Source: Candidatus Enterousia sp.
GTDB lineage: Bacteria; Pseudomonadota; Alphaproteobacteria; Rs-D84
Direction: 5' to 3'
Assembly: GCA_045645065.1 (NCBI GenBank)
Contig: JAZRIB010000005.1
Coordinates: 125,917-189,916 of the forward strand
DNA: 64,000 nucleotides
The notes below the pieces were generated by a model, which worked only from the letters and a program-made list of their open reading frames with translations, did no database searches and was not told where the DNA came from. Numbering within the stretch: the first letter of the stretch is position 1; every line of letters starts with the position of its first letter. Shown piece after piece: positions 15,483 to 64,000 of this stretch. Made by a program: the position numbers and the translations under genes.

Positions 15483-15512
15483 ACCGCGTCCCTACGGGGG
15501 CGCGTTTTTTAT
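15483..15512. terminator. Hairpin terminator after rnpB, shared with the convergent peptidase gene
   Basis: GCGTCCC-TAC-GGGGGCGC hairpin followed by TTTTTT (about 15485-15510). Confidence 0.6.
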
Positions 15513-25408: not shown

Positions 25409-25432
25409 CTAACATGATATTTGGATTATATT

Positions 25433-46047: not shown

Positions 46048-46076
46048 CAACCCCCCCGCATTATTGCGGGGATTTA
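46048..46076 (-). terminator. Hairpin terminator directly after giant gene 1 (contains a C7/G7 run)
   Basis: Stem CCCCGC (46055-46060) / GCGGGG (46067-46072), loop ATTATT, starting 2 nt after the stop at 46078-46080. Confidence 0.6.
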
Positions 46077-46077
46077 T

Positions 46078-49000
46078 TTACCACGGCATAAAACCATCAT
46101 TGCACGTACGTTCACATTTCTTAGTGTTTTTATTCCATTTCATTGAACCTGTTTCATCTTCGTACAATTCCATTGGACAGATTGGAACGCATTCGTTATT
46201 TGTTTTATCCAAATTATACAATTCGCCTTGGTATAAACACGTTGCAATCTTACAGCCGCTGCTATAACTGCTTACCGCTTCATCGCCTAATACACTTTTT
46301 GCATTACGGCATCGTCCGCACTGTTTATCTGGCTCATTTGAATCATATGGATTGTTTGTATAACCTGCATCACACGATGTCGCGATACATTCGGTCCATT
46401 TTTTCAAATCTGTATCCCATGTACGTTTACCAATACCATGTTCAATATTACATACAGAAACATTTGGCACACAAGAATTTGATTCTACATGATATCCATC
46501 GGTGCATTCCGATATCTTGCATATTCCGAATGCGCCATTTGTTACATCCCATGTTTGGGTTGCTGCAACAGCATTTGGTGCAACGCATGATTTAACATTG
46601 CTTTCACATTTATCGCCATCTGGATGATATGTTGGTTTGCATGTTGCAACCAGACAATTTCCATTTGCTTTATATTCCAGTGCATTGTCGCGTTCGCATT
46701 TCTGACACCGTCCGTTAATCAATTCATAATCGTATTTACATGATGTTTCTACACATGTTTCAACACCATTAATCGTTCTGATTTCGCACGGATTTAGTGT
46801 TTCAGAAATCCCCTTGTACGTACACATGTCATCATATTGTACAGAATCCATATCACGTATAGCCGTACCACCAAGAATCGGGTAATCCTTACATATCGCA
46901 TAACACTGTTCAATTTTGGTTGAACCTGCTAGTGACAATGTATGCGTACCACCAGACAGCGCGTCACATGTTTGTGGTTTTGCGTCTGCGACACCGTCTT
47001 CGTTCATATCAACACCTGATTCTGTGCCACAAACACTGTTTTCTGGACACAATGTACATTGTGATTTTTCGCCATCCAGATAGAATGTTGCTTTACATGT
47101 TTTGATTTTACATGTGTCTGTCATATTTGCGCCCTGGTAATCACGTCCAAACATACTTGTTGCATTTGTTAATATGTCGCAATCACCAAAGCACTGACCG
47201 TTATCAACAGAACCTTCGTCTGAATTCGGATAACGCCCGTCAAACAGGTCTTTACACAATTGTGGCTTTGCGTTTGCTACACCATTTTCGCCAACGCGTG
47301 TTTGTTCGCCACAAATACTGCCAGATGGACAAATCTTACATGAATTTGTATTCAAGTAATATTTTGTATCACAACGGTTAACCTGACATTCCGAACATCC
47401 CGCAACATATTCCTGGGCAGATATATCATAACCACATGTCTTCAATCCACTGCCGTTTGTAACATTGCATGGCATATTTTCCATAAAGCATGCAGATGCA
47501 TCTGCGCTGAATTCGGTCTGTGTTTTACCCTGTCTTCCATCGAACGATGCGCATGTACCACGTCCAGTGATATAACCTTCGTTTTCAGGATTCGCCACAG
47601 GCCCAAAGAACCCATATCCGACTTTGACACAATCTGTTGCATCAGATTCTGCTTGGTTCCAGTAATACCCTGCGTCGCATTTATGGAACACGCGCGCCGC
47701 GCAAACCGTATAATCCTGTGTTTCTGGCGTGTATCTGCAATAACGAACCCCGCTGCCGTGTTCTGCGACGAATGGATTGTTTGCCTTGTAACACATTGTA
47801 GATACCGCAGCTGTTTCGATATCTGTATCACCACCGTCTGGACATGGTGTTTTATCCAGATTTCCTTCTTCACTATATGCACCATATCCCACCGCATCAC
47901 AATCTGTAGCATCATTTGCTGCACGATAGTATCCACCCTGACATGATGTTATGTGCCATTCGCGACAATTCGTTGCATACCGCGCACTGCCGTCTTCGTT
48001 CTTGGCGGTGTAATTACATACCTGGGTACCTTTACCATACACAGCCGTATAATCGACAGTTTTATAGCATTCACCAACTTCGGATGCTGTTTTAACAGTT
48101 CCTGTGATACCATTTTCTGGGCATGCATAACGTTTTTTATCTGTGTCGGTACTATAATAATTTATACCAACCTCTGAACAATCGATGCCAGATGAATACC
48201 AGTATCCAGCCACACATGCATCAACTGATTGTTCACGACACAAATTATCATACGCGCTTGTACCATAATTACATGTCTGTGTTCCACTTGCTTTTCCTGT
48301 TGTTGACACATATTTCAATCCTTGTTTATAGCATACGCCAATATTTGTTGCGTCAACACCACCACTGGATTTACCACCATCTGGGCATGTGTTATGGCCA
48401 CTTGTAACCCCTGTGTTGGTTGGGAATGTTCCACCCGGACACCAGTGGTCTAATTCGCACACAGAACACACACCGTCTTTGTTTCCGTTATAGTAATATC
48501 CTGGGTCACATATTGTATCGCCTTCGGCCCACATGACGTTGGCATTTGTATCAGATGTTGCAACCGCCAATGCTTTTGCATCTGTTTGTAATGCACCTGT
48601 TGCATCAATGATAACAACATCGTCAACACCATATCCTGCAAAATTCCAGCCTGGCTTGCTTGGTAATGTGCCGTTGTTTATTTGCGTAATCGGTGTTTGT
48701 GCTGATTTATCTGCAAACCAGCCAACCGTATATTTCAAATAGACAGGGTTTTGTGTTGCGTTCACTGTTGCGTCTGCTGCAACCAGTTTAATTTCAAACA
48801 CACCCGGATTCCATGTTGCATACAACGTTATATCTGAACCTGTATCAGATATATTTGCGGACGTTGCCACACCTGCGGAATAACATTTACCTGTTCCATC
48901 TGGATTTTCACACCATTTGCTGGCTGTTACATACCCATCACGTGTCAGCGCATCTGTTTTTGGTAACATACATGCACCGCTATCAAACGTACATTCTACA

Positions 49001-52000
49001 TAATCATTTATGTTACCAGTACCTTGGTTTTTATTTAGTGTAACCTTGTACTTGTTCGCAACACATTTTGGATTTGTGCCGTTTTGTGGTGTGTATCCAC
49101 TTACACACGTTACAGTATAAGAACACGCCGCATACTGACCGTTTCCATTACTAAACGCTTTCTGTTCATTTGCTGTAACTGTTTTACTGTGTTCTACACC
49201 TGATGTTGTTAACGAACATGCGCTATAACAGTTAGCGATATTTGCGCGTGGCAAATCAGAACCGATACCATCACCTGTGGCACCTGTTTCGCCTGGACAC
49301 AAATGAGCCTTTTTACTATTTGCATCTTCAACATCGCCAGACGAAACTGGACCTGGACTGTAATATCCGTCTTTCACAGGCGTACATGCAATTGCACCTT
49401 TATCGGTATAGTAATATCCTGCATCACAACTAAGGGCAATGGCATTACAGTCTTCACGATATATTGCGTTACTATCATCGCCACTGGTATATGCACAATC
49501 CCATTTTGCAGTACCATATTTAAATTCTATATCCGCTGCAATTGCAGTCTTGCGACATTCATATATACTGGTCGCTTGTGCTACGATTGTTGCACCACCT
49601 GCGGGGCATGTTGCAATACATCCTGTGGAACCTTCGTTGATTTTTCCTGTTCCTGGACAATATTTGCCTAATTCACAACGTGTCTTGACACCATTGTTAA
49701 AGTAATACCCAGATTCACAATCAACCATGTTTTGATCCCAGATAGCATACAATGTCATTTCGCCACCATCAGACAGCAAATTCTTGATACTGCCATTAGG
49801 CAAAATCGTTTGTCCCGACCCGTCTGCTTTTGTGTTCCATGCGTTAAAGGTTTTATATTCCATTTGCAACGCATCTGGGGCCTGACATTCTTTGTCATAC
49901 GTACATACAACATCTGGGACATTCAATCCTGTGGCATCTGTTGGATTGAAATGCACTGTAAATGTTGTTGCTTTCCAATTTGCGATAACTGTTGTATCGC
50001 CTGTTGAACCGCTTGCAATCGCATTATTTACAACTTTATCACCCGTCCACTTTTCGAACACATAGCCCGTCTTGGTTGGTGTTAACAATGCAACCGGCGT
50101 ATCTTCAATTGTATACGTTGTTGGATTGCTTGGATTATTATTTCCATCATTCATTGTATATGTAATATCATATACGTTCTTTTCCCAATGCGCATACAAT
50201 ACATCATCTGTTGTAAATGTATTATTTGCAGGAATGTTCATATTGGCGTCTATAATGCGGTTACCACCAGACTGTGCGTCATAATAGCCCAAGAAAGAGT
50301 ATCCCGGACGTGTTGGTTTGTTTAATTTGTTTAACACAGTTGTTGCTGCTGCATTTGTATACCAACCAACTGTATACTTCTGGTAAACAACACCATTGCC
50401 ACCGGAACCTGCATTATCGTCTAATGTTATTTCATATGTTCCTGGCGTACATGTTGCCACATCAGATGCAGACATTGGTGCGCTATACAATGTGCGTTTA
50501 TAACTATATTCAACTTTATCGGTTGTGTTTGCCACATATCCAGGATCACAAACAAATGTGAACGAACAGAACGAAGTCGGTGTACATATAGTTTGTGGAT
50601 ACCATCTATACCCCATTGTTGGTAGCGTTCCTTCGGTACATGTTGCATGTTCAGGACAATGATTAACACTTGTACCTGGTATTACATTACCATCCATATC
50701 TAATACATAATCATTTGCGAAATTACACGTTGGCGAACATCTGCTGTAACACGCGTTTGGACCATTTGATATCGTTGGCATAGATGCCAAACTATACATT
50801 CCTGCTGGCTCTAAATCACTACAAGACGATAAACAATCCGGTTTTTCTGTTGTAATATAATGACGCGCATCGCACATATTGGTGGTACTGTTCGCATCAA
50901 TTTTACACTCGGCGTCTTTTACCGTACATGTATTTGAATTATAGTATTCAATACCAGCTATCTCCTCAGATGTATCGTATTTACATTTAGAGAAATTCGT
51001 CGGGCAACCACTTGGTTCAACGCACAGTTCAGTACATTGTTTGTAGCAGTCTGTTATTTCGTCACTGCCGGCTTCAGAATAGGGGAACGAACCGCCTGTT
51101 TCTGTACCACATGAATATTCTACACCGTTTTTGCAATAACTGTTTGCAGGACATACATTGCTACACTCTGAAACACTGGCCGCAGTATCTTTACCTGTCA
51201 ATGCGCCACCTGGACATGGTGTACGATACACAGAACACCCTGGCTGAGTAGGTTCTTTGTCTTCGCCATCACAATTGGCTTGTGACGGGCTATAGAAACC
51301 ATCGCCAACCGGCACACAATCGTCTGTTGATTTGGTTGTATCCAACCAATATCCTGCATTACATGAAACGACGGTTGCTTGCGTGCAATTTACATCATAT
51401 TTCTTTGAATCATTTGAATAGTAACATTGGCGTCTTTGGAACCCATATGTCGTATAATGAGATAACCCTTTCATTATACACTGTTCGGCACTTTCAGATG
51501 TTTCATAGTTTGTTGTTCCGCGCGTGTTTGTATCTGTATTCAACGGACAATCTGATGCTGTCAAAGAATTTGCAGGACTGTATTTTCCATATCCAACCGC
51601 ACTACATAATACATCCGTTGTATTTTTACGATAATAACCACCCGCACAGGTAATAATGCTTTGATTGCTACAATCCTTGGTATATTCACCTGTATTTACA
51701 TTGTATTTGCATGTCTGACTGCCTGTTGTATAACTGTCTGGGGCATACGCCAAATTCGTTGCATAACAATCTTGGGACGACGTTGATTTTTCTAGAGAAC
51801 TTACCACAACGTTCATAGTTTTACCAGATGCGTCCGTTGCAGCAACATATTTACCATTTAATGATTCACAGGTACTACGTCCACTCTCTGTATTTGTGTC
51901 CTGAACAGTCGTTATACCAACACAATAACTGCCTGATGGACATGGTGTACAAGATGCACCTGTTCCTTTATAATATTCTCCTTTGTCACAGGTTATCTGT

Positions 52001-55000
52001 GGCTTATCAGTCCAGCTTGCTGTAATTGTTTCAGGCCCAGTAAACAATTTGTAATTCGTTGTCAACTTACCCGTTGCATCAATTACTACATCATTCTTGT
52101 TCGACAGATATCCGCCAAAAGTCTTTCCTGATAGTGTTAATGGGCTAACAGACGTTAACACTTGTGAAGTTCCTGCGTCTTTGTACCAACCTGTGTTGTA
52201 TTTCAGATATATTTCATTAACCCCAGATGTAGCACCGTTGTGATTTAACGTTATCTTGTACACAGCTGGCTGACACGACAAACCATTGGCCTCATACCCA
52301 GGATCACAGTTTGCACTATACTTACATTCCTGTATGCGTGTACCGTCGTAATATACTTTATCTGATGTTGGCACCAGTGTTCCATTAACAATATTTTGTT
52401 CCGGACAAGTATTATAACAATCTGACGCCAACGCAGATGTAGCAGTTTCTGTTTTAACTTCGCCAACTGTATTGCTGTTTGACAACGAAGAACATGCTTT
52501 TCTGGCGCCTACGCCATCATTAGCTGCACGATAATAACCAAAACCAACTGGATCACACTTATCACTTGTTCCATCTCTGTAATATCCAGCGATACATGAT
52601 GTTGGCACGATATTACAAGACAAGTTATAAGAAGATGCGGCTGCGTTCCAATTACAGGTCTTATTACCACTACCTGTATTTTGTGTACCATTTGCTGCTT
52701 CGATATCAACCGTTCCTGTGGCCATACACTGTGATATACTATTCGCCCCATTTACAGATGATATTGTTTTACCGGTTGCGGCTGGACATTTTATCATACA
52801 GCCTTTGGTTGTATCGTTTTCTTCACCTTTATTTACTTTATTACCTGGGCAATAGTATCCCGATTGACAATCTGCACCACTGGCATCCTTTCCTGACTCA
52901 CATTGAAATACCCCTAACGCACAACCTGTATCAGTCTTGTTGTAATTTGTATTACATGTCCAATCGTTCGTTCCATCACATGTCGCATGATCAGGGCAGG
53001 TTGTACATGTATTGTTTTTCAACAACAATCCTGTATTACACTTGTTAATTGTCAAAGAACATGTCGGTGCAGTTGCATTACACGCAAAACCATAATACTG
53101 GGTACCGGTCGCTGTTTCTGTGCCATTCGTACAAGACGCCGCGTCACTTGGGCATGTTTGTGGGTTACATGACACTGTACATGACTTAGAACATTTATCT
53201 TTACCATTTGTTCCCCCTGGACATGTGTATCCACTGCCTAATTCAGACGCTGGTTTACACGCGCCATTATCAAGATAGTATCCAGATTGACAACTGGTCG
53301 CTTTACATGTGCTTGTTCCACCTTTGGTAAGTGTACCTGTAACCGCTGTTGCGCCAGACACATCGGATTTTATACAGTCACGATAACATGTGTTGGTATT
53401 GCCACTGCAAATATTATACGTTCCGTTTGTGTATCCTGTAATGCTTGTGCATGATGTTGTACAACTTGTACATGTGCCGTTTAATGGATATGTACCAGAA
53501 CCACAGTTACACCCACCATCTGTTGTCGAATTACATGGGGTCCACTTGGCCCAGAACGTCAATGCAGTTGTACAATTTCCTGTAGCGACGCTTGTAATTT
53601 TATTGCCGCTTAACTCTGCATTATCAAACCAACCATCAAATTTATATCCTGCACGTATAACATTTGTCGGCAAATTAAACGTAGGGGTTTCTACATTACA
53701 CGCAGACATATAATCCCCAACAATCTCACCATTATTTTTATTGTATATGATTGTTTTCTCGCTTTCAGAAACCCACGCTGCTGTCAGTGTTTTGTTTTCT
53801 GCATATTTCCATGTAAATGCTGTACCAGCTGCTTTCTTATCCCCAACACCACTAACGGTCCAGCCATCGAACTTATATCCCTCACGTGAACATGTGTTTG
53901 CCGCTGGGGTGAAACTGCTGTCATATTTTGCAGTTGTTGCAGACGGCGCAGTACCAGAACCATCACCACATGAATACGTTACGTTATATTTACGTGCCGA
54001 ACAGCCTGCCAATGTCCCAGACGCTGAACCCGCTGTACCATATGCTGTGAACGATGGTGTTGTATCTGTATTGCCTGATTTACTGTAACCTGTATTACAT
54101 GTTACTGTGTACTGGCAACGATTGTTTGCTGTATCTGTAGATGCAGAACCTATCGTACTGTTTGCAGCGGCTGTGTACGAACATTTTGCCCACACAGCAT
54201 ACAATTGCACTGAACCACCACATGTCGCAGTCAGGTTCGTAACACTTTGACCGTTCTTATATGTTTCGGACGTTGCGCCACTGGTCGTTGACCAGCCCAA
54301 GAATACATAACCATCACGTGTAAATCCATTAGAGGTTAATGTTTTACCACTGTCATATGTGTGCGTGCTGGACGCTGTTGTCCCAGAACCACCGTTAGCA
54401 TTGTATGTTACAGTATATGTACATGGGGTGTATTTACATGTATCATCGGCACTCTTATAGTCACGACCAGATTTTGTATAACCCGTCTTGTCTGCGCAAC
54501 TTGTATAACAGTATCTTTCGCCATTCGCATCATTGTCATGGCTTGGATATGATGAGTCACACTTTGTACACTTACCACTGCCCAACCATGTATTGTTTGT
54601 ACATGATGTTGCTGTACAGCTACTTGGGGCGGTCGCACCATAATAGAACTTACCTGTTACCGCGCCACTGTTTGATACATCGGTTGTCGAACAAGAACGA
54701 TAACACGTGTTGACTGTATCCCTGTTGCCGTCTGATGCCGTATAATCTGCGCCTGCTTTCGTTGTACATGAATCACATGTCGCAGTGTATCCACCACCAT
54801 TGTTGGTTGCGCTTCTGGTGGCTTTATAGTAACCGCTGTTACATGACCATGTGATATTACATACGTTATTAGAAACTTTTGCGCTACAACCTATGGCACT
54901 GGTGTCATTTGTACACGTACACTGCGACCACTGGGCATACAATGTTTTATTCGCTGTAAATGTTGTATTCGCAGGCAGGGCACCGGTCGCCGTAATACGT

Positions 55001-57468
55001 TGAGTACCACCAGATGTTTCTGTGTAATAACCCTTAAATACATAACCATCACGTTTTGGTATCGCAACAGAACTTATTGTTGTGCCAGAACTGTTCGTCC
55101 ATTTGGTGTTATATACTTCCTTGACTGTACCAGAACCACCCGTTCCGTTATTGTCGTTCAACGTAATCGTATATGTATCTGTATTCCATGTACCTGTGAT
55201 AGTAGCAGTACCGCTAGTTACACCCAAGTTTGTACTGTTACATGTTACAGATGCACCTGCATCAAACGTCTTGCTATTTACAGACCATTTGCCAAACGTA
55301 TAACCTGTCGCAGTCATCGCAGATGGCATTGTAAAGTTGTTGCCATATATACAACTACTTGGGCTTGTTGGTGCTGTACCATGCCCGCCATTCTTCCAAG
55401 ACAATGTAATTGTGTTCGCACCACATGATGTATTTGCTTGATATCCTTCTGCACATGTCCAGATGGCTGTAAATGTCACAGTGCCACTGGTTGAACGCAG
55501 ATTCTTAAAACTGGTAGCTTTTGTGCCGCTAATACTGCTGTCTGTGGTGGTCTGACTGCCATATGTATGTGTCACGCCATCCATACCTGTAATTTTCCAG
55601 CCCGCAAACGTACCATGCGTATGTGTTGGATTATCTACAGTAAACGCCGTGTCATACTTGGCACTGGTTGGATGATTTGTGCCATATGAACCATCATTTA
55701 ACACATATGATACTGTATATGTATTCTCCGTCCACTGGGCTGTAACAGCCGAACTTGTGCCACTGTATACACCAAGTTTTGTATAATTACATGTCACAGA
55801 TGTACTTGCAGATTGTACCGTTCCATCCGCCAATTTCCAACCGCCAAACGTATAGCCTGTACGTGTTGGTTCCGCAGGCAAAGTCAACGAACCGCCATAC
55901 GTACAACTGCCATTGGTTACAGACGAGCCACCGTTTTCATTATAATCAACAGTAATGCTGTTAGCTGTACATGCCGGTGATGTGTTTGTGCCAGTCGCTG
56001 CAGCACCTGTAAACGTTCCAGATGTCTTAAAACCATTCGCACAGGTATAGCTATATGTACATTTGTTGCTTGATACGCCCGTAACCGAACACTCACTTAC
56101 ATTGCCACCCTTAGTACATGCACACGCTGACCACTGGGCTGTCAATGTAATAGCAGATCCTGTACTTACATTCTTCAAACTACCGCCAGCTGCAATTATA
56201 TCACCATCACATGCAGAGGTACCACCTGTACATTTCCAACCAGTAAATACATAGTTCGTTCTGGTATATGTATTCGCTGGGGCAGTGCAGGCCGCATCAT
56301 ATGTACAGCTTGTCGGGCTGGTCGGTGCAGTTCCACCTGTGTTGCCGTTCCCAGCATAACTGATAGTAAATGTATTCGCCTTACAAGTATCTGTTGCGCT
56401 GTAATAATTACGTCCAGAATAACCCGTGCCACAACTTGTAAAGCAGTATGAACTGGTAATACTACCGCCATCTGAACTTGGATAACCGCTTGGACATGCT
56501 GAACATGTTTTGTCACGACCCGAACCGGTTACATACGAATTTGCCTTCGCGCTATATGTCGATACTTCCGTTGCTGTACCATTATACTGGCCGGTTGATG
56601 AATTATAGTTCACTAACATACCACCACTTGAACAGTATGTACTCTTCTGTGTCGCTGAGATATTGATATAGCAATCATCAATCACATCCGAACCAGAATC
56701 TGACGACACGCTTGACCATTCTGGATCAGTTGGACATTCGCTGCGTGTCACACTGTCCGCCGGTGAATAGTACCCCGAACCAACAGGAACACATGCATTG
56801 GCCAACAACGCTGTTGCTGTCTTTTCTTCATCATACACAGGTTCCGAATCTGCAGATAATGTCACATTATAATAACCGGCATCACACTTCAAGTTATAAC
56901 GATGGATTTGACATGATCTGTTCGTTCCATTGACACCATAGGTATCTGCGTCACTATCGACATAACACAAGTAAATTCCCAAAGAACCATGATCCACCAA
57001 ATCAACCGCGTCAAAGACAGCATAACAACTGCTACGTTCAACATGCAGCTCACCCTCCTTCCCCGAATTATTATAGCTCAAAATCCCTGACTGTGTTGAT
57101 GTTGGACATGGTGTACATGACGTCTGACCTTCGTTTGCAGCATACGTCGCATTGATACATTTTGACTGGTATGTGTTACCTGTCTTACTTACATAGTAAC
57201 CCTTTGACGCTTTGATACATGATGTTTTACCTGTATCTGGCTGGTATGTACCCGCCGCACATGGTGTAAGTCCTTGGATTCCGCCATTAGATGTCCATGT
57301 TCCACCAAGACAATAATAACCAGCTTCACAATCTCTACATGTTGTACCATTCAAATACTGCCCCGCAGAACATGAATACGAATTCGCCGCAGACACATCG
57401 CCGATGAACAAATTACCAGCAAAAATCAAACCGAAAATTATCGTAAAAATACGCAGAATTCTAGACAT
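46078..57468 (-). CDS. Giant (3796 aa) secreted cysteine-rich mosaic surface/extracellular protein with Listeria-Bacteroides-type repeats and eukaryote-like Cys modules
   Basis: Uninterrupted ORF. ATG 57468 is preceded by an AAGGAAAG RBS and starts a classical signal peptide (MSRILRIFTIIFGLIFAGNLFIGDVSA). At least 12 units carry ...NGG...GYxFxGW... Many CxxCPxGxYC, CxAGYY and VGxGxYS motifs are present. The ORF-track start 57666 lies in a non-coding leader. Confidence 0.9.
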   Translation of the reverse strand: MSRILRIFTIIFGLIFAGNLFIGDVSAANSYSCSAGQYLNGTTCRDCEAGYYCLGGTWTSNGGIQGLTPCAAGTYQPDTGKTSCIKASKGYYVSKTGNTYQSKCINATYAANEGQTSCTPCPTSTQSGILSYNNSGKEGELHVERSSCYAVFDAVDLVDHGSLGIYLCYVDSDADTYGVNGTNRSCQIHRYNLKCDAGYYNVTLSADSEPVYDEEKTATALLANACVPVGSGYYSPADSVTRSECPTDPEWSSVSSDSGSDVIDDCYINISATQKSTYCSSGGMLVNYNSSTGQYNGTATEVSTYSAKANSYVTGSGRDKTCSACPSGYPSSDGGSITSSYCFTSCGTGYSGRNYYSATDTCKANTFTISYAGNGNTGGTAPTSPTSCTYDAACTAPANTYTRTNYVFTGWKCTGGTSACDGDIIAAGGSLKNVSTGSAITLTAQWSACACTKGGNVSECSVTGVSSNKCTYSYTCANGFKTSGTFTGAAATGTNTSPACTANSITVDYNENGGSSVTNGSCTYGGSLTLPAEPTRTGYTFGGWKLADGTVQSASTSVTCNYTKLGVYSGTSSAVTAQWTENTYTVSYVLNDGSYGTNHPTSAKYDTAFTVDNPTHTHGTFAGWKITGMDGVTHTYGSQTTTDSSISGTKATSFKNLRSTSGTVTFTAIWTCAEGYQANTSCGANTITLSWKNGGHGTAPTSPSSCIYGNNFTMPSAMTATGYTFGKWSVNSKTFDAGASVTCNSTNLGVTSGTATITGTWNTDTYTITLNDNNGTGGSGTVKEVYNTKWTNSSGTTISSVAIPKRDGYVFKGYYTETSGGTQRITATGALPANTTFTANKTLYAQWSQCTCTNDTSAIGCSAKVSNNVCNITWSCNSGYYKATRSATNNGGGYTATCDSCTTKAGADYTASDGNRDTVNTCYRSCSTTDVSNSGAVTGKFYYGATAPSSCTATSCTNNTWLGSGKCTKCDSSYPSHDNDANGERYCYTSCADKTGYTKSGRDYKSADDTCKYTPCTYTVTYNANGGSGTTASSTHTYDSGKTLTSNGFTRDGYVFLGWSTTSGATSETYKNGQSVTNLTATCGGSVQLYAVWAKCSYTAAANSTIGSASTDTANNRCQYTVTCNTGYSKSGNTDTTPSFTAYGTAGSASGTLAGCSARKYNVTYSCGDGSGTAPSATTAKYDSSFTPAANTCSREGYKFDGWTVSGVGDKKAAGTAFTWKYAENKTLTAAWVSESEKTIIYNKNNGEIVGDYMSACNVETPTFNLPTNVIRAGYKFDGWFDNAELSGNKITSVATGNCTTALTFWAKWTPCNSTTDGGCNCGSGTYPLNGTCTSCTTSCTSITGYTNGTYNICSGNTNTCYRDCIKSDVSGATAVTGTLTKGGTSTCKATSCQSGYYLDNGACKPASELGSGYTCPGGTNGKDKCSKSCTVSCNPQTCPSDAASCTNGTETATGTQYYGFACNATAPTCSLTINKCNTGLLLKNNTCTTCPDHATCDGTNDWTCNTNYNKTDTGCALGVFQCESGKDASGADCQSGYYCPGNKVNKGEENDTTKGCMIKCPAATGKTISSVNGANSISQCMATGTVDIEAANGTQNTGSGNKTCNWNAAASSYNLSCNIVPTSCIAGYYRDGTSDKCDPVGFGYYRAANDGVGARKACSSLSNSNTVGEVKTETATSALASDCYNTCPEQNIVNGTLVPTSDKVYYDGTRIQECKYSANCDPGYEANGLSCQPAVYKITLNHNGATSGVNEIYLKYNTGWYKDAGTSQVLTSVSPLTLSGKTFGGYLSNKNDVVIDATGKLTTNYKLFTGPETITASWTDKPQITCDKGEYYKGTGASCTPCPSGSYCVGITTVQDTNTESGRSTCESLNGKYVAATDASGKTMNVVVSSLEKSTSSQDCYATNLAYAPDSYTTGSQTCKYNVNTGEYTKDCSNQSIITCAGGYYRKNTTDVLCSAVGYGKYSPANSLTASDCPLNTDTNTRGTTNYETSESAEQCIMKGLSHYTTYGFQRRQCYYSNDSKKYDVNCTQATVVSCNAGYWLDTTKSTDDCVPVGDGFYSPSQANCDGEDKEPTQPGCSVYRTPCPGGALTGKDTAASVSECSNVCPANSYCKNGVEYSCGTETGGSFPYSEAGSDEITDCYKQCTELCVEPSGCPTNFSKCKYDTSEEIAGIEYYNSNTCTVKDAECKIDANSTTNMCDARHYITTEKPDCLSSCSDLEPAGMYSLASMPTISNGPNACYSRCSPTCNFANDYVLDMDGNVIPGTSVNHCPEHATCTEGTLPTMGYRWYPQTICTPTSFCSFTFVCDPGYVANTTDKVEYSYKRTLYSAPMSASDVATCTPGTYEITLDDNAGSGGNGVVYQKYTVGWYTNAAATTVLNKLNKPTRPGYSFLGYYDAQSGGNRIIDANMNIPANNTFTTDDVLYAHWEKNVYDITYTMNDGNNNPSNPTTYTIEDTPVALLTPTKTGYVFEKWTGDKVVNNAIASGSTGDTTVIANWKATTFTVHFNPTDATGLNVPDVVCTYDKECQAPDALQMEYKTFNAWNTKADGSGQTILPNGSIKNLLSDGGEMTLYAIWDQNMVDCESGYYFNNGVKTRCELGKYCPGTGKINEGSTGCIATCPAGGATIVAQATSIYECRKTAIAADIEFKYGTAKWDCAYTSGDDSNAIYREDCNAIALSCDAGYYYTDKGAIACTPVKDGYYSPGPVSSGDVEDANSKKAHLCPGETGATGDGIGSDLPRANIANCYSACSLTTSGVEHSKTVTANEQKAFSNGNGQYAACSYTVTCVSGYTPQNGTNPKCVANKYKVTLNKNQGTGNINDYVECTFDSGACMLPKTDALTRDGYVTASKWCENPDGTGKCYSAGVATSANISDTGSDITLYATWNPGVFEIKLVAADATVNATQNPVYLKYTVGWFADKSAQTPITQINNGTLPSKPGWNFAGYGVDDVVIIDATGALQTDAKALAVATSDTNANVMWAEGDTICDPGYYYNGNKDGVCSVCELDHWCPGGTFPTNTGVTSGHNTCPDGGKSSGGVDATNIGVCYKQGLKYVSTTGKASGTQTCNYGTSAYDNLCREQSVDACVAGYWYSSGIDCSEVGINYYSTDTDKKRYACPENGITGTVKTASEVGECYKTVDYTAVYGKGTQVCNYTAKNEDGSARYATNCREWHITSCQGGYYRAANDATDCDAVGYGAYSEEGNLDKTPCPDGGDTDIETAAVSTMCYKANNPFVAEHGSGVRYCRYTPETQDYTVCAARVFHKCDAGYYWNQAESDATDCVKVGYGFFGPVANPENEGYITGRGTCASFDGRQGKTQTEFSADASACFMENMPCNVTNGSGLKTCGYDISAQEYVAGCSECQVNRCDTKYYLNTNSCKICPSGSICGEQTRVGENGVANAKPQLCKDLFDGRYPNSDEGSVDNGQCFGDCDILTNATSMFGRDYQGANMTDTCKIKTCKATFYLDGEKSQCTLCPENSVCGTESGVDMNEDGVADAKPQTCDALSGGTHTLSLAGSTKIEQCYAICKDYPILGGTAIRDMDSVQYDDMCTYKGISETLNPCEIRTINGVETCVETSCKYDYELINGRCQKCERDNALEYKANGNCLVATCKPTYHPDGDKCESNVKSCVAPNAVAATQTWDVTNGAFGICKISECTDGYHVESNSCVPNVSVCNIEHGIGKRTWDTDLKKWTECIATSCDAGYTNNPYDSNEPDKQCGRCRNAKSVLGDEAVSSYSSGCKIATCLYQGELYNLDKTNNECVPICPMELYEDETGSMKWNKNTKKCERTCNDGFMPW
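53885..53994. repeat. Inter-paralog DNA cassette, copy in giant 1 (partner 63891-64000)
   Basis: Hand alignment gives 102/110 identical nt. It encodes RKYNVTYSCGDGSGTAPSATTA.Y.SSFTPAANTCSR. Confidence 0.8.
54097..54166. repeat. Inter-paralog DNA cassette, copy in giant 1 (partner 59846-59915)
   Basis: Hand alignment gives 67/70 identical nt. It encodes ANSTIGSASTDTANNRCQYTVTC. Confidence 0.85.
54436..54514. repeat. Inter-paralog DNA cassette, copy in giant 1 (partner 60617-60695)
   Basis: Hand alignment gives 77/79 identical nt. It encodes ...CADK(T/P)GYTKSGRDYKSADDTC... Confidence 0.85.
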
Positions 57469-57586
57469 TCTTCTCGCTTTCCTTTCTCTTTTACCATAAT
57501 CATAGAAAAAACAAGGCACTTTGCACAAGCAAAAAACGCTCTTTTCAACAAAAAAAATTAATTTGACAGAACGTTTTGCTGTTGAC

Positions 57587-57616
57587 TTTTTTGAAAATTG
57601 AATTTTTTCAAAAAAA
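57587..57616. repeat. AT-rich palindrome in the giant-gene intergenic region
   Basis: TTTTTTGAAAA (57587-57597) and TTTTCAAAAAAA (57605-57616) are reverse complements flanking TTGAA. Confidence 0.5.
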
Positions 57617-57625
57617 CACAACGCA

Positions 57626-57648
57626 GGGTGGGGGACAATACCCCCCCC
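57626..57648. repeat. G-rich/C8 hairpin with an 8-nt homopolymer tract upstream of giant gene 1
   Basis: GGGTGGGGG (57626-57634), ACAATA, then CCCCCCCC (57641-57648). This is a G8 run on the coding (minus) strand, 173-180 nt upstream of ATG 57468. Confidence 0.8.
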
Positions 57649-57703
57649 AAGGCAAATGTCATCCATGTCGCTATTATCTATTCATTAAATGAATAATCCA
57701 AAT

Positions 57704-57730
57704 AAAAACCCCGATTACTCGGGGTTTTTA
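57704..57730 (-). terminator. Rho-independent terminator after giant gene 2
   Basis: Stem CCCCGA (57709-57714) / TCGGGG (57719-57724), flanked by A5 and T5 runs, about 20 nt after the stop at 57752-57754. Confidence 0.75.
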
Positions 57731-57751
57731 TTTCCTTCCTGAAACTGTGCA

Positions 57752-60700
57752 TTATTGCCAATCGTTAACAACCGAATACGTTGTCGATCCGTTTTTAACT
57801 TTCAGCGCACCACTCAACGACGTGCTTAACGCGCCATAGAATGTTGTATCACCAACCTTGACACGCAGTGACGGTGTTGAACGTTCCGCGCTGCGCAAGT
57901 ATATTGTACTACCACCTGCGTGCAACTTGCGCCCACAGTCCGCCGCCTCGTTTGCACACGCACCCGAACCACATGTCACCAGTCCTGTTCCACATGCCGT
58001 ACGTGTCAAACTATCTGCTGCTGACCAGTATCCAGTTGTAACCGGTTTACACACATTACCCTTTAGCGTGGTTGCTGTCCCATTTGTATTATTACCAACG
58101 CCCGCCGCATAATAATATCCACTGGCACAACTATTCGCCTGCTGATATACCCAGCAACTGCTGAAATCGCCTGCTGTGCTTGAATACTGACAATAAACCT
58201 GACCATCATAATTACCTGTATCGTCCGCAACTGGTTCGTTCATACGCACCTGACAACCATCAATTGTGTCATGAATACCATCTGCGACCCAATACTGTTT
58301 GCCCAGCACCTTACTTGAATAAGTTTCATATGTCGGACAACTCCTACACGATGTCTGCTTTGTTGCATCCTGATACGTCGCACCGGTACATGCTGTCTGG
58401 GTTGTTTTACCCGTACCACTTACATGATACCCTGCAGACGCATCAATACACGAAGTCTTACCTGTTTCTGGCTGGTATGTACCCGCATCGCACAGTGTAC
58501 GTCCCTGTTCATTTGCATTGTACGAATATGTTACTTTTGTACTTGGGCAATATGAACCGGCTGGACATATCGTACATGATGTTTTACTACCTTGGACATA
58601 ATATCCCGCTTCACATTCAAAGCTTTGCAATAAACATGCATCCCCCGACGTTTGTGTTGCGCCACCAACTGTACCACCAACTGTATAGTTTGTTAAGCAT
58701 GTACATGTTGACGATGCGTTACCTGCGTTGGATGTACTGTTTGATGGACACGCAGAACAGCTTATTGTTGCGCCACTTTGGGTTGGTTTATACGTATTCT
58801 GGGCACAGGTTCCAGCATATGTACACGAATTAGTCCCCTTGGTTACAGAACAACTTGCCGCGTTTGTACCCTTTACGCATGGTTTACAATCCCATGAACA
58901 TGTGCTGGCGGTTGTTGCGCCACTGGTCCATTGACCGTTTGTTGGCAACCCAGAACACGGACTGCACGAAATACTGGACGCAGACGTATTCTTATTATGG
59001 TTTGCATTATAGTAACCATTGTTACATACGTGTTTGTACTGACATACATTGTTTACTACGCCTACAAACGTTGCACTGGCTACATTCGATCCCTTTGATG
59101 CCGATGCACATGGTGACCACTTTGCATAAACAGTAAGTGTTCCTCTGTCATGAATTGTGCCTGATGTACCAGTAATTTTAATGGTTGGTACACCTGTTGC
59201 AGTAATGACTTCATCCCATCTTTCGCCATCAAAGTCCCCGCCGTTGTTTAAACAATCGTAGAGCCCTTTGCCATTTTCCGCACACCAATCAAACTCATAC
59301 CCTTGGAATACATAGCCTGAACGTGTTGGTATTGCAACCTTGGTTATATAGTTCTTGGCACTATTCATCAAAGCGTACTCTCCGCCGCTTCCTGTGATTG
59401 GTGTAAAGTCCCCAGATGCATGAAAGTCAACATAAACCGTACCAGAACCGCCCGAACCACCATTATCATTCAATGTAACTTTCAGATAACGTCTGGCCCA
59501 GACTGGGGTCAACGTTAATGAATCGCCCGTTGCCAATCCCTTCAGATTATCGCCCGGTCTAACAACACTTTCACCATCGCATGGTTTTGTGCCGCCTGTA
59601 CATTTCCAGTTGACAAAGAAATAATCTGATTTTTCAAATGTATTTTCCGGCACGATGCAATCGCCACTGTACGTACAACTTTTCAACGATGGTTCCGAAC
59701 CGCCTGTTGCGCCATTGTTATCATAGTTCATTGCAAAAGTTTGTTCCGAACAACCCGCCAATGTCCCAGACGCAGAACCCGCTGTACCATACGCTGTGAA
59801 CGATGTTGTTCTGTCTGCACCACCATTCTGGCTGAAACGTGTGCTACATGTTACCGTGTACTGGCAACGATTGTTTGCTGTATCCGTAGACGCAGAACCT
59901 ATCGTACTGTTTGCACCGGCTGACCATGCGCACTGGGCCCATTGTGCCGTCAATGTGATGGTTGTTCCTGTGCTGGCGTTCTTGATATTTCCGCCAACGC
60001 CCGGCATTCCACCGTCACAGATAGTATTACCACCTGTACATTTCCAACCCGCGAACACATATCCTGAACGGGTATATGTATTTGCCGGAACGATACAGTC
60101 TTTATCGTACGTACAGCTGGTCAATGCTGTTGGTGCAGAACCACCTGTTGCACCATTGCCATTATACGTTACGCTAAACGTGTTGGCCTTACAACTTGGG
60201 GTTGCAGTGGTTGCATTGCTTACCGTATACCCATCTTCACACGTTGCGCTATATTTCGCAGTACCATCACTGTTAATGGTTAAAGAACATGTACCGTGAG
60301 TTGGTTTCACACAATTCGTCGCCCATGCTGCATACAAATTCGTATTTGCACTAAACGTTGTGTTGCTTGGCAACGCCCCTGTATTTGTTATACGACGTGT
60401 GCCACTGCCACCACTTGACGTCAAATCAGCTTGTTTCGTGGTATAGAACCCACGGAACGTAAAGCCATCACGCGACGGTATTGATGCCTTATCCAATGAT
60501 GATGTTGCACCACTGTTGCTGTACCAGCCCGTTGCATACTTTTCGTATATCGTCGAATGCGTTGCGCTGTCGTTATAATTACGCAATGTAATCGTGTATG
60601 TATTCGGCTTATACTCACATGTATCATCGGCACTCTTATAGTCACGACCAGATTTTGTATAACCCGGCTTGTCTGCGCAACTTGTAAAACAGTATGCATC

Positions 60701-63700
60701 ACTAATATTACCGCCATCTGAACCTGGGTAAAGATATGAACACGATGCACATGTCTTATCACGACCTGAACCTGTTACATATGCTCCACTTACTGCTTTA
60801 TATGTATTTGATTCATTTACTGTACCGGTGTAACTACCCGCGGTTGCATTATAATATACCATCATACCACCACTTGAACAGTACTCACTTTTCGTTGTTG
60901 CCGTGATACCAACATAGCACTGCGTTGCTTTGGTTGCTTTTGCATCAGACGCAACTGGCCATGTGCTATCCGGTGGGCATGTCATGCGTCCTTGGATTCC
61001 GCCATTATATGTCCATGATGTTTCCGGACAATAATATCCCGACTCACAATCTTTACATGTTGTACCATCCAAATACTGCCCCGCAGAACATGTATATGTG
61101 TTTGCAGTCCATTTACCAATGAATGTTGCTGTACCACTGGCCACACCTAAATCAGCTTTGGTACAATTAACAGTTGCGCCACTTGCAAATGTCTTTGCAT
61201 TAATTGCCCAACCACCAAATGTGTATCCTGTGGCACTCATTGCGGACGGCGCAGAGAATGTCGTACCATATGTACAACTGGTTGTAGCAGATGGTACTGT
61301 GCCATGACCCCCATTTGTCCATGCCAGTGTAATAACATTTGGCTGACATGAATCATCAACTACATGATAACCTTCGTTACATGTCCATTTTGCATGCAAG
61401 GCTTTATTACCTGTTGAACCCTTTGCAATCTGGGTAATTTTGTTTGTGAACGCAGATTCTGTATACCAACCACCAAACGTACTGTTTGCACGTGTTGGTG
61501 TGCCCAACACGATTGTTGGTGTTGTTACCTGATACGTTTTTGGCGCATCAGCATAGTTCGTACCACCATTCAACGTATATGAAATCGTATATGTCAACAC
61601 TGTTCCTGAACACATACTATTACCGTTCAAATCAGATGGTGTACATATTGCCTGTTCGTAACCACCACTTGGTGTTGCCGTTGCTGTACCGCAAATACCC
61701 TTGTCTACGGTTGGTGTACAACTTTTAACGCCAACGCCCAAAGAACATGTACAATCGTCACCCCAAATCGCATACAGCGTAACACGCGCATTATTTACAC
61801 TTATTACATTTGTGACGACCTCTGCGTTTGTGTACTGTGGTGTACCGATATTTGTTCTGGACCATCCTAAGAATCGTTTCAATCCATTAGAATAACCATT
61901 TGTTATCAACGCTTTGGGTTGATCATATGTATGGGCGCTTTCCAGCATTTTACCGTCACCACCATTTGGATCAAACACGATAACATATGTAACTGGTGTC
62001 CATTGTGCTGTTACCGCCGTAGAATTACCACCATACGTCCCCAGGTTTGTATTATTACAGGTCACAGAATCACCGGCTTTTTTGATTGAACCGTCTGCCA
62101 ATTTCCAACCGTCAAAGCCATAACCTGTACGGCTTGGTGCGCTTGGCAATACCAATGTACTGTTATATGTACATGATCCATTATCTATGATACCACCTTC
62201 GTTTTCGTTATAGTTAACAACGATTTCACGTGGGTTACATTTTGTACCATCTGTACTTTTTACATAACCATTGTTACATGTAAAGCTCAATGAACATGTC
62301 AACTGGCTTGCATTACATGTACCGTTATAATTTTCACGACCCGAAGATGTCGATGTTCCATGTGTACATGTCGCATGTAATGGACATGTTTGCTGTGTAC
62401 ATGCCTTTGTACAGTCTTTATAACAGTCTGCCTTTGCATCTGAGCCTGATTCGCTTTTTGGATGTGTTGATGGACATTGATTTTGTTTCGACGATGTTGA
62501 ATTTTCTGGACAGTAATATCCACTTTCACACGTACCACTACACGCCGCTGATGTCATACCTTTCTGGGCGCCATATGTACCACCTGGACACGCAATACAT
62601 GCTGTTGCTGCTGATGAACCAGTCAACGCATTATACGTACCAATTCCACATTCTGTGCGACCAGCAATCATGCCATAGTATACTTTTGAACCACCATTCG
62701 GACAGAACGATCCCTTTGGACAAGTAGTCTGTGCGCCACCTTCTGTTCCGACGTATTTACCTGTTTCCAAGGTCAGGTAACAATCAGCCGATGATGTTGA
62801 ACCTTCTGTACTGCTGTTATACCCATTCCCCAAGCCAGAGCATGTATTTGCCCCCCATGATTCATTGTATGTACCACTGCTGCACACTGGCACAGTACCA
62901 CCCGGACAGTATGAATTCGCAGGACATTTAACCGCTTTTCTATACAGCATACTATTCGTTGTTGTATTACAATACGTGCTGCTGTAACGTTCTGTCAAAT
63001 AATATCCAGCCTTTACATTAGACGTATATATACTACCTTGGTCTGTATCGTATTTACCAGTAGTTGAATCATATGCCATAGATTCAATGGTAAATGTCGC
63101 ACACGGTGTTGATACACGCATACCACTTCTACATTGTGTAATCAAACTTGTACCTGTTGCAGACCAACTGTGGAAGTACGCACTTTCTATCGATGAATTC
63201 GATGCTGTTGCTGTCGGGCAACGTTCTGTCAACCAATCCATATCAGACAATGATTCTTGATACGCACTGTTTGTTGGATCCGGACAGCTTTTTTTGCTGC
63301 TTGTATTTGGATAATACAATGTTGTTGCCGGACAGTAATTATTTACCTCACAAAGTGTCTGTGACGTTGCGTCTTTGGATGCGATATAGAATCCACCAGA
63401 CGTTGTGAAATAACAATCTTCTGCTGCATCCGACCCCGCCTTACTGTTTTTATACAGTCCTGGGCATGTTTTTGCACTGCTTGAACCTTCTGGGCAATAT
63501 GTACCTTCTGAACACTGTGCCACAGACGAACCATTACATACATAACCCGCCGGACATGCTTTCCATTCAACATAGAATTTCTTGTTGCCTGTTGAACCCT
63601 TTGCAATCTGGGTTGTAACTGTTCCAGATGCACTTTCTGCATGCCATGCAACGAACTGATAACCCGCCTTGTATGGTGTCGGCAAATTGAACGTAGTCGA

Positions 63701-64000
63701 CGTTACATCATATGACGATGGCGACAATGACATTGTGCTGGACCCGTCATAGTATGTAATAGAGTAGGTGTTCAAATTCCATTTCGCAGTCAATGTTTTA
63801 TCTGCTGCATATTTCCATGTGAACGCTGTGCTTGCTGCTTTGACATCGCTTGTGCCACTAACCGTCCAGCCCGCAAACGTATATCCCGTACGTGAACATG
63901 TGTTTGCTGCTGGGGTGAAACTGCTGTTATATGTTGCAGTTGTCGCAGACGGCGCAGTACCACTGCCATCACCACATGAATACGTTACATTATATTTACG
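57752..64000 (-). CDS. Giant secreted cysteine-rich mosaic protein 2, paralog of giant 1; 5' end outside window (at least 2082 aa)
   Basis: The reading frame stays open from 63793 to 64000 (own translation: RKYNVTYSCGDGSGTAPSATTATYNSSFTPAANTCSRTGYTFAGWTVSG...LTAKWNL). The ORF-track M at 63793 is an internal TTG. It uses the same two module types as giant 1 and has a Cys-free 59-aa C-terminal tail. Confidence 0.9.
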   Translation of the reverse strand, partial: RKYNVTYSCGDGSGTAPSATTATYNSSFTPAANTCSRTGYTFAGWTVSGTSDVKAASTAFTWKYAADKTLTAKWNLNTYSITYYDGSSTMSLSPSSYDVTSTTFNLPTPYKAGYQFVAWHAESASGTVTTQIAKGSTGNKKFYVEWKACPAGYVCNGSSVAQCSEGTYCPEGSSSAKTCPGLYKNSKAGSDAAEDCYFTTSGGFYIASKDATSQTLCEVNNYCPATTLYYPNTSSKKSCPDPTNSAYQESLSDMDWLTERCPTATASNSSIESAYFHSWSATGTSLITQCRSGMRVSTPCATFTIESMAYDSTTGKYDTDQGSIYTSNVKAGYYLTERYSSTYCNTTTNSMLYRKAVKCPANSYCPGGTVPVCSSGTYNESWGANTCSGLGNGYNSSTEGSTSSADCYLTLETGKYVGTEGGAQTTCPKGSFCPNGGSKVYYGMIAGRTECGIGTYNALTGSSAATACIACPGGTYGAQKGMTSAACSGTCESGYYCPENSTSSKQNQCPSTHPKSESGSDAKADCYKDCTKACTQQTCPLHATCTHGTSTSSGRENYNGTCNASQLTCSLSFTCNNGYVKSTDGTKCNPREIVVNYNENEGGIIDNGSCTYNSTLVLPSAPSRTGYGFDGWKLADGSIKKAGDSVTCNNTNLGTYGGNSTAVTAQWTPVTYVIVFDPNGGDGKMLESAHTYDQPKALITNGYSNGLKRFLGWSRTNIGTPQYTNAEVVTNVISVNNARVTLYAIWGDDCTCSLGVGVKSCTPTVDKGICGTATATPSGGYEQAICTPSDLNGNSMCSGTVLTYTISYTLNGGTNYADAPKTYQVTTPTIVLGTPTRANSTFGGWYTESAFTNKITQIAKGSTGNKALHAKWTCNEGYHVVDDSCQPNVITLAWTNGGHGTVPSATTSCTYGTTFSAPSAMSATGYTFGGWAINAKTFASGATVNCTKADLGVASGTATFIGKWTANTYTCSAGQYLDGTTCKDCESGYYCPETSWTYNGGIQGRMTCPPDSTWPVASDAKATKATQCYVGITATTKSEYCSSGGMMVYYNATAGSYTGTVNESNTYKAVSGAYVTGSGRDKTCASCSYLYPGSDGGNISDAYCFTSCADKPGYTKSGRDYKSADDTCEYKPNTYTITLRNYNDSATHSTIYEKYATGWYSNSGATSSLDKASIPSRDGFTFRGFYTTKQADLTSSGGSGTRRITNTGALPSNTTFSANTNLYAAWATNCVKPTHGTCSLTINSDGTAKYSATCEDGYTVSNATTATPSCKANTFSVTYNGNGATGGSAPTALTSCTYDKDCIVPANTYTRSGYVFAGWKCTGGNTICDGGMPGVGGNIKNASTGTTITLTAQWAQCAWSAGANSTIGSASTDTANNRCQYTVTCSTRFSQNGGADRTTSFTAYGTAGSASGTLAGCSEQTFAMNYDNNGATGGSEPSLKSCTYSGDCIVPENTFEKSDYFFVNWKCTGGTKPCDGESVVRPGDNLKGLATGDSLTLTPVWARRYLKVTLNDNGGSGGSGTVYVDFHASGDFTPITGSGGEYALMNSAKNYITKVAIPTRSGYVFQGYEFDWCAENGKGLYDCLNNGGDFDGERWDEVITATGVPTIKITGTSGTIHDRGTLTVYAKWSPCASASKGSNVASATFVGVVNNVCQYKHVCNNGYYNANHNKNTSASSISCSPCSGLPTNGQWTSGATTASTCSWDCKPCVKGTNAASCSVTKGTNSCTYAGTCAQNTYKPTQSGATISCSACPSNSTSNAGNASSTCTCLTNYTVGGTVGGATQTSGDACLLQSFECEAGYYVQGSKTSCTICPAGSYCPSTKVTYSYNANEQGRTLCDAGTYQPETGKTSCIDASAGYHVSGTGKTTQTACTGATYQDATKQTSCRSCPTYETYSSKVLGKQYWVADGIHDTIDGCQVRMNEPVADDTGNYDGQVYCQYSSTAGDFSSCWVYQQANSCASGYYYAAGVGNNTNGTATTLKGNVCKPVTTGYWSAADSLTRTACGTGLVTCGSGACANEAADCGRKLHAGGSTIYLRSAERSTPSLRVKVGDTTFYGALSTSLSGALKVKNGSTTYSVVNDWQ
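59846..59915. repeat. Inter-paralog DNA cassette, copy in giant 2 (partner 54097-54166)
   Basis: Hand alignment gives 67/70 identical nt. Confidence 0.85.
60617..60695. repeat. Inter-paralog DNA cassette, copy in giant 2 (partner 54436-54514)
   Basis: Hand alignment gives 77/79 identical nt. Confidence 0.85.
63891..64000. repeat. Inter-paralog DNA cassette, copy in giant 2 (partner 53885-53994); runs off the window
   Basis: Hand alignment gives 102/110 identical nt. Confidence 0.8.

Follow-up and report, generated by a model that had tools for sequence, protein, structure and literature searches.

Domain-sized cassettes shared by two tandem giant genes of Candidatus Enterousia suggest past recombination between paralogs

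How do two adjacent giant genes of a gut bacterium come to share short patches of near-identical DNA, in different order, within otherwise diverged sequences? The genes, here called g1 and g2, lie head to tail on the minus strand of a 64,000-nucleotide (nt) stretch of a Candidatus Enterousia genome, which was analyzed as a whole and is referred to as the window. The genus is placed in Rs-D84, an uncultured order of Alphaproteobacteria from animal guts, and most of its genomes are smaller than 1 Mb (PMC12306168). An initial annotation, in which the patches had been aligned by hand, read them as the signature of ongoing recombination or gene conversion between paralogs, as in variable surface-antigen families. 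Our analysis indicates that the patches are probably the product of past gene conversion or domain shuffling between these tandem, same-strand paralogs. The patches have sharp identity boundaries and depressed synonymous divergence, and the history of one of them is incongruent with that of its flanks. The net effect would be a slow diversification of the exposed N-terminal part of the proteins and not a programmed switch.

Two giant genes and their shared cassettes

Together, the two genes span at least 17.6 kb, which corresponds to approximately 2% of the genome if the size reported for the genus is taken.

46078..57468, minus strand: g1, 3796 amino acids (aa) from the likely start ATG at 57468, from the open reading frame (ORF) call
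57752..64000, minus strand: g2, 3' part only, with the stop at 57752 and the frame open to the window edge

g2 begins outside the window and so encodes at least the 2082 aa that can be seen here; its residue numbers refer to this visible part. The mechanical ORF of g1 covers 46078-57666; the likely ATG at 57468 is preceded by the ribosome-binding-site-like sequence GAAAGGAAAG and opens a signal peptide, MSRILRIFTIIFGLIFAGNLFIGDVSA, that is typical as judged by eye. The stretch of the mechanical ORF upstream of this ATG is probably non-coding.

Both proteins match the Pfam family Flg_new (PF09479), with E-values of 7e-65 (215.5 bits) for g1 and 4.5e-40 (136 bits) for g2 against a cut-off of 27, and the NCBIfam model TIGR02543, with 106.5 and 92.3 bits, respectively. 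A hidden Markov model iterated on both proteins located 13 copies of this Flg_new (InlB B-repeat) domain in g1 and at least 10 in g2. Cysteine accounts for 6.3% of g1 and 5.5% of g2. An N-terminal segment of g1 matches Ephrin_rec_like (PF07699, formerly GCC2_GCC3) at 26.6 bits versus a cut-off of 23.1; three other segments score 16.4-18.7 bits, under the cut-off, and a Sushi match is also sub-threshold. Most of the cysteine-rich parts of g1 and g2 have no family match in Pfam or NCBIfam. An AlphaFold2 (AF2) model of the segment Flg_new, linker B and Flg_new (the domain of cassette A below) reached a pLDDT of 85.4, and its B-repeat matched the InlB crystal structure 2y5p in Foldseek with a probability of 1.00, a target-normalized TM-score of 0.72 and a root-mean-square deviation of 2.9. 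The query, with its three domains, exceeds the target in length, which explains the weak E-value of 0.05 for this match. The nearest relatives carry the NCBI name 'InlB B-repeat-containing protein'. These features suggest that g1 and g2 look like giant secreted, adhesin-like proteins built as beads on a string, in which InlB-type B-repeats alternate with small cysteine-rich domains; a surface location and an adhesive role may accordingly be proposed by domain analogy. No secretion-system genes were found in the 64-kb window, despite the need for a 3800-residue protein to cross the outer membrane, and a literature search returned nothing relevant on giant cysteine-rich InlB-repeat proteins or bacterial GCC2_GCC3.

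The absolute number of cysteines, roughly 240 in g1 and 115 in the visible part of g2, occurs in a fermentative bacterium that lives strictly in the gut. Related cysteine-rich proteins (10-12% Cys) were seen at locus L002 (9552-16644), from another alphaproteobacterial metagenome-assembled genome (MAG), at L005 (10426-11399) and at L004/L006, the hosts including Tenericutes and Gastranaerophilales MAGs. Their genes contain tandem repeats with 80-95% nt identity, which suggests that repeat homogenization is common in the wider family in small-genome gut bacteria.

Self-comparison of 46-64 kb by BLASTN, with identity also counted in 30-nt windows, revealed four blocks of 109-215 nt shared by g1 and g2 at 84-87% nt identity (E-values of 4e-31 to 4e-63), with cores of 93-97%. 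We denote them cassettes A-D.

53780..53994, minus strand: cassette A in g1, 84.2% identical over 215 nt to g2 63786-64000 (E-value 4e-63)
63786..64000, minus strand: cassette A in g2, visible aa 1-74, cut by the window edge
53994..54173, minus strand: cassette B in g1, 85.6% identical over 180 nt to g2 59743-59922 (E-value 5e-55)
59743..59922, minus strand: cassette B in g2, visible aa 1361-1420
54405..54514, minus strand: cassette C in g1, 87.3% identical over 110 nt to g2 60586-60695 (E-value 3e-33)
60586..60695, minus strand: cassette C in g2, the BLASTN partner of the g1 copy
57270..57378, minus strand: cassette D in g1, 86.2% identical over 109 nt to g2 60988-61096 (E-value 4e-31)
60988..61096, minus strand: cassette D in g2, internal, visible aa 969-1004
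55096..56745, minus strand: older shared modules in g1, namely module E (56017-56745), module G (55627-55971) and module F (55096-55497)

The blocks are wider than the patches that had been aligned by hand, and the four hand-counted identities proved exact: 77/79 for 54436-54514 versus 60617-60695, 67/70 for 54097-54166 versus 59846-59915, 102/110 for 53885-53994 versus 63891-64000, and 28/29 for 57271-57299 versus 60989-61017. On the domain map, cassette A corresponds to exactly one whole Flg_new domain (g1 aa 1226-1298) and cassette B to exactly one cysteine-rich linker domain (g1 aa ~1160-1224) between two Flg_new domains. Cassette C runs from the last part of a cysteine-rich module (..SCADKTGYTKSGRDYKSADDTC..) into the opening codons of the Flg_new domain at 1083-1159; it contains the longest exact match between g1 and g2, 50 nt at 54436-54485. 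Cassette D is the first cysteine-rich (Ephrin_rec_like) module of mature g1 (aa 97-132). At the block edges, the number of matches per 30-nt window needs only a few tens of bases to drop from 27-30 to 7-13, the level expected by chance. The mosaic character claimed for the patches is borne out in B, C and D by these sharp edges and by clustering of the matches, the longest exact run having p ≤ 0.004 in each upon shuffling of alignment columns; block A is uniformly ~83% identical, without internal mosaic. Within cassette B, two near-identical halves enclose a diverged centre of 13 codons, which could represent a second tract or local diversification.

Beyond the cassettes, the older shared stretches show 67-74% nt identity in BLASTN. 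The g2 partners of modules E, G and F lie at 59822-60988, 61916-62239 and 61010-61423, with 49-57% aa identity. In an ungapped protein comparison, about a dozen modules are shared at 47-84% identity and in shuffled order. Some eight shared modules besides cassettes A-D are much more diverged. The larger-scale arrangement described in the initial annotation was likewise recovered. The N-terminal block of g1 (aa 87-550) is colinear with aa 960-1393 of g2, with two large indels; the NYNENGG...GWKLADG unit follows this block in g1 (aa 566-680) and precedes it in g2 (aa 588-695); and cassettes A and B, contiguous in g1 with their junction at 53994, are separated by 4 kb in g2. Because the window ends precisely at the start of A in g2, another B-like copy may directly precede A in that gene. 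Within g2 itself, a 32-nt patch is 94% identical between 61404-61435 and 63582-63613 and joins two Flg_new repeats at the motif TQIAKGSTGNK.

Evidence for exchange between the paralogs

To separate the history of the DNA from the conservation of the protein, we took the positions at which g1 and g2 share a degenerate amino acid and determined the fraction with identical codons, for which codon usage predicts ~50%. In cassette A, 45 of the 59 identical residues use the same codon (25.6 expected), including 30/35 in the first half. The two halves of cassette B gave 18/21 and 16/21, and cassette D gave 24/26. In cassette C, the same codon is used in an unbroken run of 24/24, versus 12 expected (run-length p = 0.0002 by permutation). 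The older modules are saturated at 28/60 (F), 29/55 (G) and 7/23 (J), with F and G equal to the codon-usage expectation. The same-codon fraction thus ranges from 0.76 to 1.0 in the patches versus 0.47-0.53 in F and G. Since synonymous sites are unsaturated in the patches and saturated in the other shared modules, the pattern points to exchange of DNA and not to protein constraint. As a calibration, alanyl-tRNA synthetase (AlaRS) compared with that of the nearest Enterousia species has a same-codon fraction of 0.52-0.61, which dates the patches to a time after the nearest sequenced species had split off. Tracts of depressed synonymous divergence with sharp boundaries between paralogs, as expected from gene conversion, are therefore present at this locus.

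A third sequence allowed the history of cassette A to be compared with that of its neighbors. P0002, at locus L010, is an ortholog from an alphaproteobacterial MAG of roe-deer cecum. In cassette A, g1 and g2 are 84% identical in aa and 83% in nt, versus 70% and 67% for g1 and P0002. In the adjoining Flg_new domain, the values are 32% and 43% for g1 and g2 versus 54% and 60% for g1 and P0002, and in the next cysteine-rich module they are 20% and 36% versus 50% and 56%. Because g1 is closest to g2 in cassette A and closest to P0002 in the adjoining domains, the history of A differs from that of its flanks, and this cassette is phylogenetically incongruent with them. A pattern search for cassette A found only two roe-deer alphaproteobacterial MAGs and nothing in metagenomes.

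The single 3099-aa ortholog of g1 at locus L094 (8066-17434, MAG RGIG4037) locates the cassettes within the protein. This gene lies beside PIF1 and tRNA-Met, without a tandem partner and without internal nucleotide repeats. By BLASTP it follows g1 in order over aa 1084-3862 at 41-47% identity; by direct alignment, clear colinearity begins only at cassette A (aa 1223), and the N-terminal part of g1 is only ~30% similar and not colinear. The ortholog has neither cassette B nor cassette C, and a repeat directly abuts A. All cassettes common to g1 and g2 lie within, or at the edge of, this variable N-terminal third of g1. Between g1 and g2, homologous but diverged sequence borders C and D on both sides and A on its C-terminal side, and B is flanked in g2 by an Flg_new subtype that differs from the one in g1. 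The different repeat subtypes around B, together with its absence from the L094 ortholog, suggest domain duplication or insertion for this cassette and not conversion between aligned sequences.

Two observations concern the relatives' loci themselves. The window's own PIF1 neighborhood (25421-26710) contains no giant gene, so the locus has either moved or been gained independently. Between the two roe-deer cecum MAGs RGIG3991 and RGIG4037, the 5' part of the giant gene plus tRNA-Met is 99.7% identical in nt (L010 7300-10542 versus L094 7871-11112), with 5/6 differences clustering in 70 nt just after the signal peptide, and the flanking housekeeping genes of the same pair (L010 101-6897 versus L094 1041-7797) are only 75-78% identical. 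Two explanations would account for this difference: the gene was recently transferred or replaced horizontally, or the contig is chimeric, with its junction at the tRNA.

Considering these results, the N-terminal third of g1 (~aa 87-1298) probably represents a lineage-specific variable region, built from modules that also occur in g2 in another order. Most of these modules would be old. Four segments of ~110-215 nt would have been copied between g1 and g2, or have entered both genes from an unseen relative, once the lineage had separated from its closest sequenced relatives. For the mechanism, we infer non-reciprocal homologous recombination (gene conversion) or the insertion of domain-sized segments. 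Two of the segments are exactly single domains, which suggests that only exchanges preserving folded units have survived. RuvB and a RecN-like gene are present in the window, and we count them in favor of exchange.

Several points weigh against past exchange between g1 and g2 as the explanation. RecA was not seen in the 64 kb of genome covered, and surface location and adhesin function are drawn from domain analogy only. A third paralog outside the window could have acted as donor. Block A, having no internal mosaic, could reflect the late duplication of one domain instead of conversion. The flanks of B share almost no homology between g1 and g2; classical conversion fits this poorly, and insertion or duplication is needed.

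The most serious competing explanation is that g1 and g2 never exchanged DNA directly and that each received its cassettes independently from third sources, either unseen paralogs or homologs acquired horizontally from co-resident bacteria. The 3-17% divergence of the patches would fit donors that are related without being identical, and g2 continues beyond the window. Homologs of the giant proteins also occur in Gastranaerophilales, Tenericutes and Clostridia MAGs, and the 99.7% identical giant gene within 75-78% identical flanks hints at a family that moves between genomes. However, searches of 185,579 species genomes, the JGI metagenomes and a collection of 5.8 billion proteins yielded no third homolog of B or C, and the neighboring gene is the simplest donor for each patch. 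We therefore regard independent acquisition as unlikely, though it is the strongest of the rivals.

Active variation, constraint and assembly

A further question is whether the exchange continues, such that conversion among g1, g2 and further family members, perhaps together with promoter switching, yields new mosaics continually. The mosaic patches lie in the N-terminal region of g1, which is the region not conserved in the ortholog, and a reduced genome and life in the gut are shared with several bacteria known to have such systems. The third favorable observation is a run of eight G residues (G8) in the spacer of a promoter-like site upstream of g1, in the region between the two genes.

57469..57699, minus strand: leader and promoter region of g1; the mechanical ORF runs to 57666
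57700..57733, minus strand: intrinsic-terminator-like hairpin followed by a T-run, after the g2 stop (inverted repeat of 34 nt, 94%; AAAAACCCCGAGTAATCGGGGTTTTTATTT)
46053..46072, minus strand: terminator-like hairpin directly after the g1 stop

The strong terminator hairpin between the genes suggests that g1 and g2 are separate transcription units. Among the G/C homopolymers of the window, the G8 run (C8 on the plus strand) at 57641-57648 is the longest; ~0.4 runs of at least eight G or C are expected in 64 kb by our own estimate from base counts. It sits in the spacer of the promoter-like element ATGACA-16-TATTGT (57662..57635), a 9/12 match between the g2 terminator and the g1 ATG. A G tract in a promoter spacer is the classical arrangement for slipped-strand phase variation, and this tract could turn g1 on and off in that way. 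Its assignment to a promoter is weak, as the overall promoter scan was not enriched (33 sites found versus 40 expected in shuffles).

Other observations argue against an active system. Judged by the 3-17% divergence of the patches and a longest exact match of 50 nt, none of the exchanges is recent on the time scale of a population; the identity of donor and recipient tracts is 83-97%, and no identical tract exists. Within the window, g1 and g2 are long, intact ORFs separated by a terminator, g1 having a signal peptide and its own leader, instead of silent or promoterless fragments. Only four patches occur in ~18 kb, and the other 46 kb of the window (1-46 kb) contain no further copy of g1 or g2. 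Exact-sequence look-ups of g1, TsaD and AlaRS gave no match, no second strain of the source organism was found among the genome and metagenome collections queried, and the related loci (~200 kb) have no homopolymer of eight or more. A scan of the window ORFs with Pfam found no reverse transcriptase, and no site-specific recombinase or invertase was found in the window, where inverted repeats occur only at chance level (19-26 nt). Two particular mechanisms were rejected accordingly: a diversity-generating retroelement, for which the window shows neither a reverse transcriptase nor an adenine bias (the mismatch spectrum is mixed), and a shufflon or invertible segment, given the lack of a recombinase and of meaningful inverted repeats and the direct orientation of g1 and g2. 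Continual generation of new mosaics thus appears decidedly improbable. The same applies to the bolder idea that the N-terminal parts of the Enterousia proteins are continually re-assorted by domain-sized cassettes while g1 is switched through its G8 promoter tract, which would constitute an undescribed surface-variation system; if true, it would amount to recombinational surface variation in a host-associated, minimal-genome bacterium (<1 Mb). Of the two parts of the initial annotation, recombination or gene conversion between the paralogs is supported for past events by the codon test and by the incongruence of cassette A, whereas its 'ongoing' nature is not supported, given the 3-17% divergence and exact matches of at most 50 nt. 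The likeness to variable surface-antigen systems is unsupported as well: the window contains intact ORFs and neither silent cassettes, a recombinase, a reverse transcriptase nor inverted repeats.

If no recombination had occurred, the patches would be the most constrained parts, at the level of protein, mRNA or DNA, of two old paralogs. They do coincide with structural units, namely whole domains and cysteine motifs. However, protein constraint does not preserve synonymous codons, as seen in the 24/24 run of cassette C, and the equally conserved modules F and G are synonymously saturated. RNA folding of the patches is unremarkable (z-scores of -1.3 to +0.6), ruling out selection on RNA structure there. 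The peptide of cassette C occurs in no other genome or metagenome scanned, and degenerate DNA patterns for C also gave no match in genome or metagenome contigs. The ordinary folding and the isolation of this peptide exclude nucleotide-level or deep protein constraint as the cause. Taken together, the codon test, the clustering, the incongruent three-sequence comparison and the RNA folding largely refute constraint as a sufficient explanation, leaving it highly improbable. An antisense ORF or promoter was also rejected for cassette C: the g2 copy lacks an equivalent of the plus-strand ORF 54405-54713, and promoter-like sites show no enrichment. Tandem-repeat slippage was rejected as well within g1 and g2, where TRF gives only trivial two-copy units and no tandem arrays.

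An assembly artefact, in which strain mixture or collapsed repeats made the mosaic in a metagenome-assembled contig, is scarcely credible: related giant genes do often lie at contig ends in MAGs and the contig of one relative may have been wrongly joined at a tRNA gene, but the shared exact stretches of at most 50 nt are far below typical assembly k-mers, the frames stay open over 11.4 kb and >6.2 kb, the patch edges fall at domain boundaries, and composition and GC skew are uniform across the giant-gene locus.

The remainder of the window resembles an ordinary bacterial chromosome segment, with RNase P RNA, SecA, DnaE, RuvB, the RecN-like gene, AlaRS, TsaD and XseA. Its AlaRS is 88-90% identical to those of three Candidatus Enterousia MAGs, and the gene order downstream of AlaRS is not conserved in the relatives' loci L013-L015. 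The RNase P RNA is of bacterial class A (15152-15486, plus strand, 166 bits) and lies between minus-strand genes. A Lon-like protein of ~585 aa (28506-30263, minus strand) has substrate-binding, AAA and lid domains and no Pfam match to the Lon protease domain; the syntenic gene of a relative (L010 1569-3329) likewise lacks such a match.

Likeness to known surface-protein systems

Mosaic paralogs are the usual raw material of surface-protein diversification, and Enterousia is a further lineage that shows them. As biology, the recombination signal is expected and will not surprise a specialist; it is a new example of a well-known process in an uncharacterized family of giant proteins, 3800-residue chains of InlB-type B-repeats and cysteine-rich beads. 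The mosaic points to a pressure to change that acts on the N-terminal third of these proteins, and this in turn suggests that they contact a host, a partner cell or phages. The proteins are probably among the most important interaction factors of a bacterium with fewer than ~1000 genes.

Proteins with InlB B-repeats (Listeria-Bacteroides repeats) are the closest in architecture, sharing with g1 and g2 the repeats, 13 and at least 10 in number, and a predicted fold that matches 2y5p. In contrast to these proteins, g1 and g2 add ~6% Cys in Ephrin-receptor-like (formerly GCC2_GCC3) and CCP-like modules, are giant, and belong to a Gram-negative alphaproteobacterium with a very small genome. The Giardia VSPs are cysteine-rich variable surface proteins of protists with GCC2_GCC3-type repeats. 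Repeated cysteine motifs of the CxxC...GYYC style and a weak to moderate PF07699 match link g1 and g2 to them, whereas the bacterial pair shows no VSP Pfam match or membrane anchor motif and has two family members in view.

Cassette-type antigenic variation is represented by Neisseria pilE/pilS, Borrelia vlsE, Anaplasma msp2 and Mycoplasma genitalium MgPa/MgPar. Common to these systems and to the giant genes is the segmental, non-reciprocal copying of short stretches among surface-protein sequences, and several of the hosts have reduced genomes. Unlike them, g1 and g2 have no visible array of silent, truncated donors, their tracts are not identical and show no sign of high frequency, and both partners look expressed, as judged from sequence.

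The nearest parallels are found among intact genes. In the Treponema pallidum tpr family, gene conversion takes place between full-length paralogous surface genes. The babA, babB and babC genes of Helicobacter pylori (PMC4552749, PMC5483490) are another example. They resemble g1 and g2 in being intact, separately transcribed paralogs within one genome, in having short high-identity tracts in a diverged background, and in being affected in the region presumed to be exposed. A simple-sequence tract, CT repeats in the bab genes and the G8 run in g1, may allow on/off switching in both. In comparison with bab and tpr, the proposed Enterousia exchange is read from one assembly and not from a strain series that follows it in real time. 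The Enterousia genes also differ in being adjacent giants (3796 aa and >2082 aa) composed of repeated small domains, and their tracts are domain-sized and occupy non-equivalent positions, which indicates shuffling of domains and not only homogenization.

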